In this document: positions 26,104 to 64,000 of the stretch, piece after piece
How positions within the stretch are numbered: position 1 is the stretch's first letter
Layout: every line of letters starts with the position of its first letter
DNA from: an uncultured Rivularia sp.
GTDB taxonomy: Bacteria; Cyanobacteriota; Cyanobacteriia; Cyanobacteriales; Nostocaceae
Direction: 5' to 3'
Assembly: GCA_963665115.1 (NCBI GenBank)
Contig: OY762007.1
Coordinates: forward strand, 5,856,001-5,920,000
Length of the DNA stretch: 64,000 nucleotides
Made by a program: the position numbers and the translations under genes
Notes under the pieces: model-generated
The model's input: only the letters and a program-made list of their open reading frames with translations
Databases searched by the model: none
Told to the model about the DNA's origin: nothing

Positions 26104-26176
26104 GCCGGGATAGCTCAGTTGGTAGAGCAGAGGACTGAAAATCCTCGTGTCACGAGTTCAAGTCTCGTTCCTGGCA
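26104..26176 (+). tRNA. trnF: tRNA-Phe(GAA), probable integration site of the element
   Basis: GCCGGGATAGCTCAGTTGGTAGAGCAGAGGACTGAAAATCCTCGTGTCACGAGTTCAAGTCTCGTTCCTGGCA folds as a cloverleaf; no encoded CCA. Confidence 0.98.
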
Positions 26177-26185
26177 TACAAAATG

Positions 26186-26220
26186 AAACCCCCACCAGCT
26201 AACGCTTCTGGGGGTTTTTT
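26186..26220 (+). terminator. Intrinsic terminator after tRNA-Phe
   Basis: AAACCCCCACCAG ... CTGGGGGTTT hairpin followed by a T run. Confidence 0.65.
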
Positions 26221-26376
26221 AATTCCACAAAAACCCCGTTTCAGCGATTTACGGAGGTGTAACTGTGGTGTAAAAAATAGCCACGTTGGACATATTTGGA
26301 TATGTTTAGCTAAATTTTGGGGGTAAATTGGGGGTAAATTTAAGCGCGTTCTGTGACGCGGTTTCAGGAGTTCCCT

Positions 26377-59621: not shown

Positions 59622-62600
59622 ATGGTTTTAAAACTCAAACACTTTGATACTAAAACTAAACAGGATACTCGAATAGAGGAAAAACTAGAAAACACTCTTG
59701 CAGAATACTTATTCAGGGATGTCAAGTTTAGTATTGGTACTGCTTATCCTGAAGCTACTACTCCCCAAGATTTACAAGAACATAACGGAATGACTTTACA
59801 ATTTTGTGCGGGTAAAAGAATGTATTTTGCAAATGACCCGACTATCCGCTCTAAACTATACCCAAATCCTTCCGATGGTGCAGCATATCCTTTACCTTTT
59901 ACACCCTGTCGAAGTTTTCATGAATTAGAAAATGTCAGAATTTTAGTTGTTGATGATGTCACTGGAGACAACGGTGGTGCGATTGCAAAAAGTGATGCAA
60001 AAAAAATGGTAGGTGATTGTAAAGGTTTAATTGATAAAGATTTTGCTATCTCGAATAATATTGCGTCCCGTGCTTTTCAATTTCGGCTTGGTATAAGACC
60101 TCAAGCACAAAGTCCAGTTATGAGAATTGCTAAGGGTACACTTGCACCAGTGCGATTGGATAAGCTGGGAGACTCATTTTTTACTATGGACGGTAATCTG
60201 TCCGATGGTACTCTCCGTTCAAAATTTGGTTGCGATATGGTACTAGCCACGTCTTCTTTTAAAGGAAGGAAAGGAGAAGATGCAATTCAACCTGGAAAAT
60301 ATACACTTTCTATTGGTTTGGGTGTGAAATCATTAGCATTATATCGAGAGCATAGTTTGGGTACTCAGTTTTTAGTCAATTATCCTCATGCAGTAAAACA
60401 AGAAATTTTACCTATTATAAAACAACAAGCAGAACAACTGGCTCAAGAGCAAAAAGACTCTTTAAAAATAGCGCAGCGATATATTGAAACTTACGAAAAA
60501 CGTAAAGCTTTATGTCAACAAAATTTTCAATTAGATTTGGAACCAAAAGATTTAGATTTAAATAATCAATTTTCTATATTTGACGATTTAGATTCTGATA
60601 GAGAAGACGAAAAACATAATGACAGAGATAATGTTGATTGCGTTCAGAAAGATTTGTTGCTTTATTCGCTACTGAAAGCTGATGTAAACAATTATTGTCA
60701 GTTAATTGAACATCCAAAGATTATGAGCGAGCTTCAAGATTTTGTACGTAAACAGTGGGTAGATATCGCAACTGGACGCTCCATCAAGTTTACTTCTGGT
60801 TTAGCTCAACCAAGTTTGGAATTAAAGTGCGATGAAATATGTATACCATATTTAGATGAAAAGGAAGAAATTATAGTTACTCGTTCGCCATTAATTAATT
60901 CTAATGGTGTTATTACTTTAAAAAATAAATATTTACCTAAAATGTTAGATGGATGTGTTTATATTCATCCAAAAACAGCAATGGATAATATGCAATGTGA
61001 TTTTGATGGAGATTTATTAGCATTTGCACCTAGTAAGGATTTTCCAAAATTAGCAATCGAAGTAAAACAAAGAAACTTATTAGAAAACCGTTATCCAGAT
61101 ATTATCAAAAAAGATAAAATACCCTACAAAGGAACTTTTGAAGAAATTGCTGTTGAAGCGATGGATAATAAGATTGGAATCATTGCTAACGAAATTCAGA
61201 AGAACTTAGCCCTACAATCCGAAATTTGTGCAATGCCTCAATCAGATAAATTTGAATATTTGAGACATTTATCGGAACATTTTAATAAACTATTACAACA
61301 ACATGACCGAGGTAAACTAGCAATTCCAGATAAGATAATAGAGCAAATAATACCAGTTGCCTCAACTAATATCAATTCTATTAATAATTTAGAAATAGAG
61401 GAAAAATTACATCAAGTAAAAAAGATATTGTTTGATTGCGTTGCTCACCTGAGTAACGAACTACAAGTTGCAACAGATGGACCCAAGAGTGCTTTACGTC
61501 CTGATAATGAAATTGTTAACTATTGTCAAAAAATAACAGGTTATAAAGAAGTTGAATGGTTAGCTGATAAGAAAAATCCAGAAGCTTTTACTCTTCAAGG
61601 TATGAAAAGTAATGGTTATAGTCCTATTGACTTAATGATTCAACAAACAAACCAAATTTTTGAACAAAGCCAAATTACGGCAAGACCTATTGAGCAATTT
61701 AGAAAGTTATATCCTACTGTTGAATTTACTGATAAAATTATTAATATAGCTAAAGAAATTAAAAGTCATTATAACTTCTTAATTAAACAACGTATTCAGC
61801 TTGAAGAATCCAAGAAACCCGAACGGGGTCCGTACTTAACTATTACTTCTCCAATTACAGGAAAACAACTAGAGATTACTAATTTAATTTCATTTGATAT
61901 TGCTAAGGATTTTGATTTTTGGCAGTTTTCAAAATTGACTATTGCAATAGAATCAAGAAAACCATCAAAAAATATGCCCCATATTTTTAAGGCTACTATT
62001 AAATCAAAAAAATCCGATGGTAAAGACGTAGATATAACTATTGGCACAATTAGCATGAAGTCTATCCGAGAACATAACCTAAAACCTGGAATGAAAATAA
62101 AACAAGGTAATGTTGAATTTAATTTCGGTATTAGCGATGGTATGGTTGATGCTTTAAAGCAACAAACTCTTGAATATGTTGAATCAATAAGAGAAAATAC
62201 TCCTGATAATGAAAAGCTACAGCTAGCAGCTGCAATTCATGATATTAGTCATACCGAAGAAAATAAAAATTATTTAGGTCTTAAAAAAGCAGGTGTGGCT
62301 TTTGCTATATTTCCCGACGAAGTTATAGGTCAATTAAATCAGTTACAGTTTACTCAAATGAGAGTACTTGGTACTCAGTTCAATCATTATGCTGACAGAA
62401 ACTTTGCTGGTGAACAAGTCCCGGTAAAATTTGAGAATGGTATTAATCCCCGTGCCCCCAATCAAACTGCGCGTTGGATAATTGTAGAAGGTAACAAGCT
62501 GGGTACTATTGATGCCTCTTCTCCTCATTTGCTGGCTGGATGTGAAGCGATTGCTGCTATAACTTCTCCTCCTAGTAAAAGCGTTATTATCACCAGCTTG

Positions 62601-63416
62601 AAAAATTCAGATAATAAATTACAAATTGATAACGTTAATAAATATGCTTTTAAATATCGTCAGTGGCAGAATGAACAAGCCAATATTACTTTAGTTATAG
62701 GACAAACTAACCGACATAAAGCACCAACTGTGTTTGCTAAGATAAATAATCAAATATTAGGAACTGTTAATAAAAAATCAGTCAATTTTTTACAAGAAAA
62801 ACTTGCTGCTGTTGGTAAGTCAATTCAGGGATTTACGTTTTCAGGTACCTTAAAAAATGCTCCTGTTAGCTATGCGGATATTACAATTGACCCTTCTACC
62901 GTAAAGTTTCCACAAATTGAAACTACATTACAACATGATAAAAACTCGATTGAAAGTAGTAAGCCGGTTTGCACCGTTTTATTTTTTGAAGCATCTGTAG
63001 ATAGTAAACTTCAGCCATTAACAGAGCAAGTAATATCTAATATGCTCCATCGAGCTGTTGAACGTGCTGCTGAGTTGGGTTATGAGAAGGTACAGTTTGT
63101 TGATGTTTCTACAAATCATACAGAGTCTTCAGCTTCAAGAACTATTAAGCAACTTGCAGCTGAACACCAAGATATAACTGTTGATTTTATCGGTAGTGCT
63201 TCTGTTGAAGATGCAATCGGATTGATGAAGGAACCATCAGATATTGCAATCGGGATTAAGAGCGCTCAAAGTCTTGGCATTATTGATTTTGTAACTGCTC
63301 AGGGAAAGGCGATCGCCACATATAATCCTCAAACGCAAAAATTTGATAGACGGAATTTACCTGCTCCGAAAAAGACTGCTGAAATAACTAAAGATATTGA
63401 ACGCGACGAACGTTGA
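59622..63416 (+). CDS. Single-subunit two-barrel RNA polymerase-like protein (RdRP/YonO-related)
   Basis: Ordered motifs GDCKGLI, AFQFR, AKGT, SSFK, VTRSP, QCDFDGD (60999-61013 for DFDGD), IGIIAN and LQVATDGPKS. Confidence 0.8.
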   Translation: MVLKLKHFDTKTKQDTRIEEKLENTLAEYLFRDVKFSIGTAYPEATTPQDLQEHNGMTLQFCAGKRMYFANDPTIRSKLYPNPSDGAAYPLPFTPCRSFHELENVRILVVDDVTGDNGGAIAKSDAKKMVGDCKGLIDKDFAISNNIASRAFQFRLGIRPQAQSPVMRIAKGTLAPVRLDKLGDSFFTMDGNLSDGTLRSKFGCDMVLATSSFKGRKGEDAIQPGKYTLSIGLGVKSLALYREHSLGTQFLVNYPHAVKQEILPIIKQQAEQLAQEQKDSLKIAQRYIETYEKRKALCQQNFQLDLEPKDLDLNNQFSIFDDLDSDREDEKHNDRDNVDCVQKDLLLYSLLKADVNNYCQLIEHPKIMSELQDFVRKQWVDIATGRSIKFTSGLAQPSLELKCDEICIPYLDEKEEIIVTRSPLINSNGVITLKNKYLPKMLDGCVYIHPKTAMDNMQCDFDGDLLAFAPSKDFPKLAIEVKQRNLLENRYPDIIKKDKIPYKGTFEEIAVEAMDNKIGIIANEIQKNLALQSEICAMPQSDKFEYLRHLSEHFNKLLQQHDRGKLAIPDKIIEQIIPVASTNINSINNLEIEEKLHQVKKILFDCVAHLSNELQVATDGPKSALRPDNEIVNYCQKITGYKEVEWLADKKNPEAFTLQGMKSNGYSPIDLMIQQTNQIFEQSQITARPIEQFRKLYPTVEFTDKIINIAKEIKSHYNFLIKQRIQLEESKKPERGPYLTITSPITGKQLEITNLISFDIAKDFDFWQFSKLTIAIESRKPSKNMPHIFKATIKSKKSDGKDVDITIGTISMKSIREHNLKPGMKIKQGNVEFNFGISDGMVDALKQQTLEYVESIRENTPDNEKLQLAAAIHDISHTEENKNYLGLKKAGVAFAIFPDEVIGQLNQLQFTQMRVLGTQFNHYADRNFAGEQVPVKFENGINPRAPNQTARWIIVEGNKLGTIDASSPHLLAGCEAIAAITSPPSKSVIITSLKNSDNKLQIDNVNKYAFKYRQWQNEQANITLVIGQTNRHKAPTVFAKINNQILGTVNKKSVNFLQEKLAAVGKSIQGFTFSGTLKNAPVSYADITIDPSTVKFPQIETTLQHDKNSIESSKPVCTVLFFEASVDSKLQPLTEQVISNMLHRAVERAAELGYEKVQFVDVSTNHTESSASRTIKQLAAEHQDITVDFIGSASVEDAIGLMKEPSDIAIGIKSAQSLGIIDFVTAQGKAIATYNPQTQKFDRRNLPAPKKTAEITKDIERDER

Positions 63417-63451
63417 ATTTGTATCAACCTATAACAACGGATTAGCGTAAA

Positions 63452-64000
63452 ATGACAATGCTTTTTGATATCGAGCAATATCGTGCCCCAGATTCACAAA
63501 ACCACAAAGGTGACTGGGATGGTGTGAAGTATGATGGAGCTTGGGATATGATGGTTCGGCTTTTCCACAAACTAGTTCTAAAACTTCTTTACAAGAAACT
63601 AGTGGTAGTAACAAAACTGATTGTTGGTATACCCCACCATCAATTGTTGAATTAGTCATACAGGTTTTAGGAGAAATAAATCTTGACCCTTGCGCGGATG
63701 ATGGACGACATATAAGAGCAGCAAAGCATTATACGTTTGATGATGATGGGTTGAAACAGCCTTGGTGTGGGAAAGTTTATATGAACCCTCCCTATTCGCA
63801 CCCTGGTGTTTGGATGAAGAAACTGCAACTTGAATTTGAAACGGGTAATGTGGATGAAGCAATTGCTCTTGTACCAGCTGCTACGGACACCAATTGGTTA
63901 TCTCCAGTTTTGAAAACTCAACCTGTGTGTTTTTGGAAGGGAAGAATTAAGTTTTTAGGTCAAGATTACCAACCAAAATTATCTGCAAGACAGTCTCATG
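63452..64000 (+). CDS. Phage-type DNA N6-adenine methyltransferase; frameshift near 63548, 3' end outside the window
   Basis: Translated by hand: DCWYTP, LDPC, DGL.QPW.GKVYMNPPYS (NPPY at 63784-63795), LVPAATDTNW and GRIKF. Confidence 0.85.

Follow-up and report, generated by a model that had tools for sequence, protein, structure and literature searches.

Conjugation systems of the MPF_C/MOB_V type, together with a few integrative and conjugative elements (ICEs), are known in cyanobacteria from genomics, with pCC7120alpha as the model (PMC3158045, PMC4027160; statements on cited papers refer, here and below, to the parts of their text that were available). A 2011 survey counts four cyanobacterial ICEs, all of them in Cyanothece, as compared with 11 plasmids (PMC3158045). 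A second point of comparison are the heterocyst interruption elements (nifD/xisA, fdxN/xisF, hupL/xisC), inserts that split a heterocyst gene and carry a recombinase at one end. Hilton 2016 found little shared content among such elements and considered their origin hard to trace, suggesting phages (PMC4874684). In Bacillus, the site-specific recombination (SSR) units of SPbeta, skin and ICEBs1 involve active mobile elements in a gene used only in the terminal cell, and such units are swapped between elements (PMC6957869). Here we analyze a window of 64,000 nucleotides from an uncultured Rivularia sp. (G000:C1:5856001-5920000), part of a one-contig genome of 8.69 Mb labeled G000; further G-labels denote the genomes compared with it. 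Beside a tRNA-Phe gene the window holds a block of integration, replication, partition, conjugation and RNA polymerase (RNAP) genes. With a probability of roughly 70%, we read this block as the core of a 131-kb likely ICE with near-identical, cassette-swapped sisters in hupS and nifE that would need excision in heterocysts. An exact att repeat, the gene content, a hairpin resembling an origin of transfer (oriT), exchanged recombinase cassettes, gene-interrupting positions and near-identity across species were all observed directly.

Boundaries and core of the tRNA-Phe element

An exact direct repeat of the last 45 bp of the tRNA-Phe gene (26133-26177) lies 130.8 kb downstream and past the window, at G000:C1:6012942-6012986, and supplies the attR that the original prediction proposed to look for. 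Since these exact repeats bound it, the element is 130,809 bp long and reaches 93 kb beyond the window; the tRNA gene itself is left whole. The att-integrase junction is alike in G003, G007 and G031, and in G003 a near-identical attR arm is joined to the window's integrase type. At this tRNA array, G003 and G007 carry integrases 97-98% identical to that of the window and likewise keep the order int-xis-rep-primase-vir; in G007 this order runs on through mob-par, and the RNAP gene lies downstream in both genomes. The backbone order virD4-AAA-mobV-parM-parR-mobD-RNAP also occurs on the circular Fischerella NIES-4106 plasmid2. The modules are thus syntenic elsewhere, and the plasmid-like ICE proposed in the original prediction gains support from attR, the conserved tRNA-Phe arrangement and the circular-plasmid backbone. 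We are confident that the window element is an ICE. It is a previously unrecorded member of the MPF_C/MOB_V ICEs, with which it shares VirB4, VirB10, VirD4, a MOB_V relaxase and a virB-like operon (PMC3158045, PMC4027160). It differs from the ICEs of the 2011 survey in belonging to a heterocystous genus, in having several chromosomal copies per genome and in using tyrosine or serine recombinases.

The features of the core are given below in window coordinates, with family calls from Pfam/NCBIfam profile searches using family cut-offs. The integrase, excisionase, repressor, primase-helicase, VirB/VirD4 cluster, MOB_V relaxase, ParM with its partner, RNAP-like gene and methylase named in the original prediction all lie where it had placed them.

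26103..26177, + strand: tRNA-Phe(GAA), the integration target; att core (attL) at 26133-26177
26353..27546, + strand: tyrosine integrase with arm-binding domain; PF00589 and PF12167 above cut-off
27903..28109, - strand: excisionase-like open reading frame (ORF); DUF1233, E 8e-4, below cut-off
29226..29606, - strand: Cro/CI-type helix-turn-helix repressor; PF01381 (HTH_3) above cut-off
29884..32971, + strand: putative Zn-finger/TOPRIM primase fused to a P-loop helicase, from motifs
34810..43743, + strand: MPF_C-type type IV secretion system (T4SS) operon; VirB4 and VirB10 by sequence
36198..38882, + strand: VirB4; TIGR00929/TIGR02746 below cut-off
41553..43250, + strand: VirB10; PF03743 above cut-off
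46278..48115, + strand: VirD4 coupling protein; PF02534/PF10412 above cut-off
48459..51404, + strand: conserved protein of 455 aa with an -ER end, and an AAA+ ATPase; both in the shared backbone
53008..54589, - strand: MOB_V relaxase; PF01076 above cut-off; NF041497 at 103 bits versus a cut-off of 100
55208..55235, + strand: predicted oriT, a 9-bp hairpin with loop TAGTGTGTTT; matches the pMV158 nick sequence
55513..56979, + strand: ParM actin-like ATPase (PF17989 above cut-off) and downstream partner ORF
57012..58728, + strand: TraL/MobD-like P-loop protein and DUF6753 protein (above Pfam cut-off)
59622..63416, + strand: single-chain two-barrel RNAP (YonO/RdRP-like) by motifs and predicted fold; 1264 aa
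63541..64000, + strand, extending past the window: Dam-type N6-adenine methylase; PF05869 above cut-off

The T4SS operon runs pilin-like, VirB3-like, VirB4, VirB5-like, VirB6-like, VirB8-like, VirB10, VirB9-like. The VirB3/6/8/9-like ORFs gave no informative Pfam/NCBIfam match, and the names other than VirB4 and VirB10 are putative ones given from order and size. VirB4 is 75-83% identical to its closest Nostocales plasmid homologs and 55.6% identical to that of pCC7120alpha. The relaxase carries a Mob_Pre domain, an N-terminal His and an HxDExxPHxH motif, which we take to be the MOB_V spelling. VirB4, coupling protein and relaxase co-occur in the element, and their frames are intact in G031 and, at the sites compared, in sequencing runs X2/X3.

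The hairpin at 55208-55235 (z -3.7) is the element's predicted oriT, as suggested by its sequence. The nick context of pMV158 is TAGTGTG/TTA (PMC5863519). A 12-mer, GTGTAGTGTGTT, overlaps the hairpin loop and is common to 6/7 aligned mob-par spacers. It has three copies in 8.69 Mb (1.2 expected), every one between mobV and parM of an element.

The primase-helicase shows Zn-finger, TOPRIM-like and Walker A motifs, and its C-terminal half is 39% identical to a plasmid primase/polymerase fusion; no Pfam match exceeded the cut-off (only DUF927, E 0.17). The excisionase-like protein has 68 aa in the G000 assembly versus 90-94 aa in G003, G007 and G031, so its true length is probably about 90 aa. 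Downstream of ParM, the partner ORF (120 aa in the window, 120-128 aa overall) matches no family above cut-off and is a putative ParR by position. An actin-like ATPase followed by a small partner is shared with plasmid ParMRC and the cyanobacterial CorMR/FcmB (bioRxiv 10.1101/2025.06.27.661541). The window ParM differs from CorMR/FcmB in being element-borne, in having no parC array that we could find and in falling under the FcmB cut-off (NF052678, a weak match of 50 bits versus 300). Three 20-bp repeats stand head-to-tail at 58739-58798, just past the DUF6753 gene and upstream of the RNAP gene.

The 93 kb beyond the window are cargo: glycosyltransferase, ATP-binding cassette (ABC) and sulfotransferase genes, a gene resembling nonribosomal peptide synthetases (NRPS-like), an RTX-repeat protein, a PapD-type chaperone gene and insertion sequence elements. 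One cluster (G000:C1:5924594-5953000) combines glycosyltransferases, an ABC-2 exporter, TPR-sulfotransferases, the NRPS-like gene and a UbiA-cyclase-PhyH fusion. Neither GC fraction (0.373 versus 0.379) nor HIP1 density (22 versus 30 per 100 kb) sets the element apart from the host by much.

Right after attR comes a second integrase, related to the first and 68% identical to it. It opens a tandem second element with a distant core (G000:C1:6013227-6144501 and beyond), followed by a third, inverted copy of the att core at 6144457-6144501 adjoining a broken integrase. In G004 the tRNA-Phe gene abuts the second integrase directly, matching the state expected after removal of a window-type element, and in G005, G011, G013 and G017 it abuts the end of the third element. 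In G007 the host flank is inverted relative to tRNA-Phe. The element array at this site appears to rearrange. Elsewhere in G000, 11 tRNA genes form an array at C1:2710034-2711354.

Sister copies in hupS and nifE

The nif and hup genes of G000 are interrupted by recombinase elements, and its top protein matches come from Rivularia/Calothrix-type cyanobacteria, from which we infer that the host forms heterocysts. The window copy is not itself such an interruption, as it sits at tRNA-Phe and splits no heterocyst-specific gene. However, G000 holds three further cores of this kind plus a relaxase-less vir operon, and sister copies interrupt heterocyst genes, which the original prediction did not include. 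In the 139-kb hupS copy of G000, hupS is interrupted at codon ~281 (near C1:4366628) and continues near 4227200. This copy is 80-95% identical to the window element in most T4SS and primase proteins; its ends are inverted repeats, and a serine recombinase replaces the tyrosine integrase. Six recombinase queries found no further recombinase inside it. G031 has the equivalent insert (hupS-281; 110 kb) with an intact core, and in G001 and G018 the core lies beside the hupS-281 junction or recombinase. G005 carries a 99.7% identical hupS-type recombinase with a core in an oxidoreductase-like gene (L071:15480 onward), a probable secondary insertion site.

In G003 and G013 the core lies behind a different serine recombinase, which splits nifE (109 kb in G003). 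A more distant core splits hupS at codon 15-16 (the hupS-49 site) in G013 (124 kb) and G003 (~300 kb), and the inserts at the same site in G031 (42 kb) and G007 (67 kb) gave no VirB4 or RNAP match. In the sister copies at hupS and nifE, the interrupted gene is cut into two parts that stay in frame, short repeats mark the junctions, and the recombinase is no more than 3 kb away. A third core type, with DnaB helicase and ArdA, lies behind a tyrosine recombinase at tRNA-Cys (G000:C1:1728000-1767704) and is also found in G032.

The nifE and hupS copies are homologous from position -2029 to the primase start, and the recombinase cassette upstream of this is their only difference. In a primase tree of nine sequences the G031 hupS copy groups with the tRNA-Phe copies (100/100), and the G013 nifE copy stands beside the hupS-type copies of G005 and G000, which implies more than one exchange of recombinase cassettes. 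The hupS cassette-primase region of G000 is 99.4, 99.8 and 96.9% identical to those of G001, G018 and G005, with one genome per species, compared with 94.3% (G001, 594 bp) and 85.0% (G005) for the host flanks. About 2480-2520 bp upstream of the primase, the hupS/nifE copies have opposite-strand ORFs of 58 aa and 88 aa, positioned like the tRNA-Phe excisionase; both are candidate recombination directionality factors.

Since hupS and nifE need to be restored, these copies are probably excised during heterocyst development; preliminary restoration of hupS has been reported in Calothrix NIES-4101 (PMC11249958). Hilton 2016 lists the nifE-558 site (9.5 kb) and the hupS-49 site (30, 91 and 258 kb) in Table B; the site at hupS nt ~840 is not among the hupS variants given there (49/51, 610) (PMC4874684). 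Unlike the elements of that study, the inserts described here bring along a complete core of genes for conjugation, partition and the polymerase. The word 'conjugative' occurs 0 times in the available text of PMC4874684, as does 'conjug' in that of PMC11249958, and literature searches, with subscription journals outside their coverage, returned no paper on an ICE origin of heterocyst elements. In comparison to Bacillus, the copies are ICE-type and the described cases are prophages (PMC6957869); SPbeta, like these elements, carries a YonO-type RNAP (PMC5467207).

Inserts at the heterocyst-gene sites form a size series from 1.65 to 139 kb, the smallest being ~1.65, 3.1 and 4.3 kb. Such a series is compatible with decay of ICEs, with a recent takeover of old units by ICEs, or with the two together. 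An initial candidate view, that the hupS-281 recombinase is confined to three genomes, was rejected, as a family-wide search found it in 23/381 genomes (0/300 in an order-wide sample).

The single-chain RNA polymerase

The window RNAP has no Pfam, NCBIfam or PDB match in sequence searches, and its identity therefore rests on structure and on distant homologs, which match PF05183 (E 1e-4 to 4e-3). The structure model (pLDDT 85, pTM 0.78) contains both double-psi barrels in one chain with a QDE-1/RDR-like fold. Its top Foldseek matches are RDR2 and QDE-1 (E 1e-11 to 1e-8). In VIA it aligns with the Thermus-phage RNAP 8f72 (Z 19.6, root mean square deviation 4.4, 510 aligned) and with 7w82 (Z 17.6, 5.1, 581 aligned). 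Two-barrel polymerases share an Asp triad, an RxP motif, a second-barrel Asp and two Lys (PMC2919709). The window protein displays D460-x-D462-G-D464, R421-x-P423, D132 and K214/K217, the last three residues being the putative second-barrel Asp and Lys pair; all of D132, K214, K217, R421, P423 and D460/462/464 are invariant in a 77-sequence alignment, and DxDGD is present in 187/188 long homologs. The RNA polymerase that had been put forward as putative is thus a two-barrel polymerase by motifs and predicted fold, and to judge from these it is very likely active.

The remaining chain consists of a beta-rich middle part, a Rossmann-like C-terminal domain and an -ER tail. For the middle part Foldseek returned only low-TM matches, and the wide VIA list was dominated by the last domain; a HIRAN domain is a speculative candidate for it. 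The C-terminal domain aligns with YpsA (Z 7.9), LOG (8.0) and DprA (7.0), tied with unrelated folds; a SLOG domain (DprA/YpsA-like) at this end is presumably a feature of the cyanobacterial RdRP-like subgroup. Several distant homologs of 1600-3300 aa (P0107, P0224, P0163, P0213, P0233, P0237 and P0253) are fused to other domains in the manner of polyvalent proteins. The fusions include RNase H (in P0107 and P0224, absent from the window RNAP), SF1 helicase, YpsA-type SLOG, NADAR and DUF4326. The available text of PMC5512222, on polyvalent proteins, has nothing on this RNAP family, and a weak test with two short patterns confirmed no relative among the viral contigs of IMG/VR.

Earlier papers already describe the YonO/RdRP-like family, its cyanobacterial group and fusions to RNase H, and they raise the possibility of a role as primase (PMC2919709, PMC3417536, PMC5467207), the latter being proposed in PMC3417536 with reference to Iyer and Aravind; the available text of the three papers reports no activity for the cyanobacterial group. 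With these enzymes the window RNAP shares the residue set and a QDE-1/RDR2-like fold. It differs in its location on conjugative elements, linked to VirB4/MOB_V, and in its extra beta-rich and Rossmann-like domains and -ER tail. Therefore, the polymerase family is known, and its conjugative context is what the present analysis adds. The available text of PMC3158045 and PMC4027160 makes no mention of a polymerase as part of the MPF_C backbone, although pCC7120alpha and pCC7120beta also bear an RNAP-like gene.

The gene lies within 60 kb of a VirB4 in 25/27 copies from eight near-complete genomes, and it is kept while the replication module switches between primase-helicase and DnaB types. It occurs on 89 plasmid records, all of them cyanobacterial among the 50 listed, and 39 of these 50 are also among the 60 listed of 130 VirB4 plasmid records. 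Of 12 VirB4s lacking an RNAP partner, eight are a conserved chromosomal ortholog that in G000 has no relaxase nearby. The respective vir operon (G000:C1:7642228-7651941, near a gyrA/parC gene) has no relaxase, coupling protein, integrase or RNAP match in its vicinity; its VirB4, 60-61% identical to that of the window, has orthologs in 9/9 genomes searched, and the operon may be a domesticated T4SS. An -ER end is found in 11/87 homolog cluster representatives versus 13/4308 host ORFs. Tails of this kind are known from T4SS-transferred proteins. Based on the VirB4 linkage and the -ER tails we favor delivery of the polymerase to the recipient over transcription in the donor, the rest of the weight going to other roles; as far as sequence can tell, delivery itself has a chance slightly short of even. 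The suggestion that the element may run its own transcription thus stands as a possibility, which is not favored since the gene tracks the DNA-transfer module and a share of the family ends in a T4SS-substrate-like tail.

Competing explanations and implications

Six core genes are split in the G000 assembly (primase, virB6, virD4 twice, kilA-like, mobV and parM), a point absent from the original prediction. If the frameshifts in virD4, mobV, virB6, parM and the primase were real, the element would be a dead relic that has lost mobility. In agreement with this, run X1 has extra bases at all four sites within its coverage, and G013 and G005 have one different primase lesion in common, which may be real. 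Contigs of runs X2/X3, however, lack the extra base at 5/5 sites compared (46745, 47664, 51707, 54334 and 56454, a set that excludes the primase and virB6 splits). Furthermore, 94 alignments of relatives' genes to G000 show many net insertions at GACCC/GTCCC/GGAAA motifs, host nifE included, and host prfC is also in two pieces. In the G031 hupS copy virB6, virD4 (614 aa, versus three pieces in G000), kilA, mobV (526 aa, versus two pieces), parM (368 aa) and the RNAP each form one frame, and the primase-helicase, broken at a C run in G000, is a single ORF of ~1030 aa in relatives. Since X2/X3 lack the extra base, host genes are hit alike and the G031 copy is in frame, the splits are probably systematic read errors, and a relic is very unlikely. 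Host breaks within the window lie at 11797-13417 (prfC) and 9665-10730 (hemB region), and that of nifE at C1:4202059-4203438; as host genes are broken like element genes, pseudogene calls in this assembly are unreliable. It would be more surprising still if the block were an entire plasmid that had entered the chromosome accidentally or through misassembly, with the adjacency of integrase and tRNA coincidental. Circular plasmids do have an equal backbone order, and the RNAP is on 89 plasmid records, but the exact att duplication, the recurrent att-integrase junction and the matching attR arm in G003 argue against such an accident.

A closer contest concerns the origin of the heterocyst inserts, which may be old, vertically inherited recombinase units that ICE cores entered or captured recently in this genus; we give this nearly the same chance as its negation. 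The nifE-type recombinase occurs in 39/360 family genomes from 15 genera, mostly at ~80-87% identity and mostly core-less where examined. The rarity of cores at hupS-49 points the same way, as does the primase tree, whose separation of copies sharing a target means repeated swaps. On the other hand, the hupS-281 unit is still spreading as part of an ICE, given its 96.9-99.8% identity across species and its new target in G005, and the 1.65-139 kb size series fits ICE decay, as does a remnant core-adjacent gene in L128. Both origins may hold, at different sites. With regard to the RNAP, it might instead be a YonO-like enzyme that transcribes the vir/mob operons in the donor after induction. For the late genes of SPbeta, YonO acts as a processive DNA-dependent RNAP (PMC5467207), Thermus-phage RNAPs are the closest VIA matches, and the gene is strictly linked to VirB4. 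Yet in the eight near-complete genomes no RNAP lies near the conserved chromosomal vir operon, plasmid records with RNAP are fewer than those with VirB4 (89 versus 130, at different E-value limits), and the -ER tails and RNase H/helicase fusions are more in keeping with a protein that is delivered or linked to replication. Upstream of the vir operon, sigma-70 sites are at chance level (6 found, 6.4 expected), which could be taken in favor of a dedicated donor enzyme, but the scan is uninformative for or against it. We regard donor-side transcription as rather improbable.

Several observations weigh against the reading of the block as an ICE core with sisters in heterocyst genes. The core was found at 5/13 hupS-281 recombinase loci (13 examined of 14 at >=80% identity, G433 left out), with that of G005 in another gene, at 2/13 nifE loci examined (39 genomes have the recombinase) and at 2/28 hupS-49 loci with hupS adjacent (of 33); the survey used flanks of 10-18 kb, and some of the contigs were short. 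Likewise, 11 metagenome loci of the nifE recombinase, most of them short, showed no core. The core-less versions are spread over many genera, and so the ICE may be the captor of old units and not their founder. The tRNA-Phe copies of G003 and G007 are 93.7-94.1% identical versus 90.0-90.6% for host flanks, a small excess, and the values for the G031 hupS copy are 87.3% versus 85.5%. No parC-like repeat array lies beside parM (none of the five largest repeat families in 54300-55600 exceeds two copies). The -ER tail is present in a minority of RNAP homologs, which as kin are not independent, and its meaning as a T4SS signal is putative. A pure priming role of the RNAP is weakened by the element's own primase, and two G000 copies of the gene (in the second tandem element and the tRNA-Cys element) have interrupted frames. 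Finally, the circle, transfer and transcription, as well as an empty site in this strain, are predictions from sequence.

For the ICE reading we propose the following course. Integrase and excisionase would cut out a circle that the primase-helicase and ParM/ParR would keep and segregate. MOB_V would nick the hairpin at 55208-55235, and VirD4 with the MPF_C channel would carry the single strand to the recipient. There the RNAP, as a transferred protein, might make RNA (primers or early transcripts) on the incoming strand, a step to which we give somewhat less than an even chance. In this genus the core may repeatedly have acquired serine-recombinase units aimed at heterocyst-only genes, where an insertion would cost the vegetative cell nothing and would be removed in a terminal cell. 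A bolder version, tentative and on balance unlikely, is that heterocyst excision elements are domesticated ICEs that swap recombinases to hide, in heterocyst-only genes, are freed at differentiation as replicating, transfer-capable circles and deliver a QDE-1-like RNAP to the recipient, where it primes or transcribes the incoming strand.

The family described here, a variant not recorded before, consists of ICEs that bear a polymerase and whose copies also act as heterocyst interruption elements. The search in PMC6957869 for closely related ICEs with distinct SSR units found none in databases; natural ICEs with exchanged recombination units are supplied here, in cyanobacteria. The analysis adds the RNAP to the transfer backbone that many large Nostocales plasmids carry, among them pCC7120alpha and pCC7120beta of a genetically tractable strain, and this context opens a direct way of probing the function of bacterial relatives of the RNA interference polymerases. 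The origin of heterocyst inserts had stayed open, and the same sites are occupied by inserts as small as a bare 1.65-kb recombinase unit and as large as a complete conjugative element of 109-139 kb. Some of the DNA that heterocysts must excise thus likely consists of conjugative elements, and with complete inserts near-identical across species, the link between ICEs and heterocysts is open to testing.

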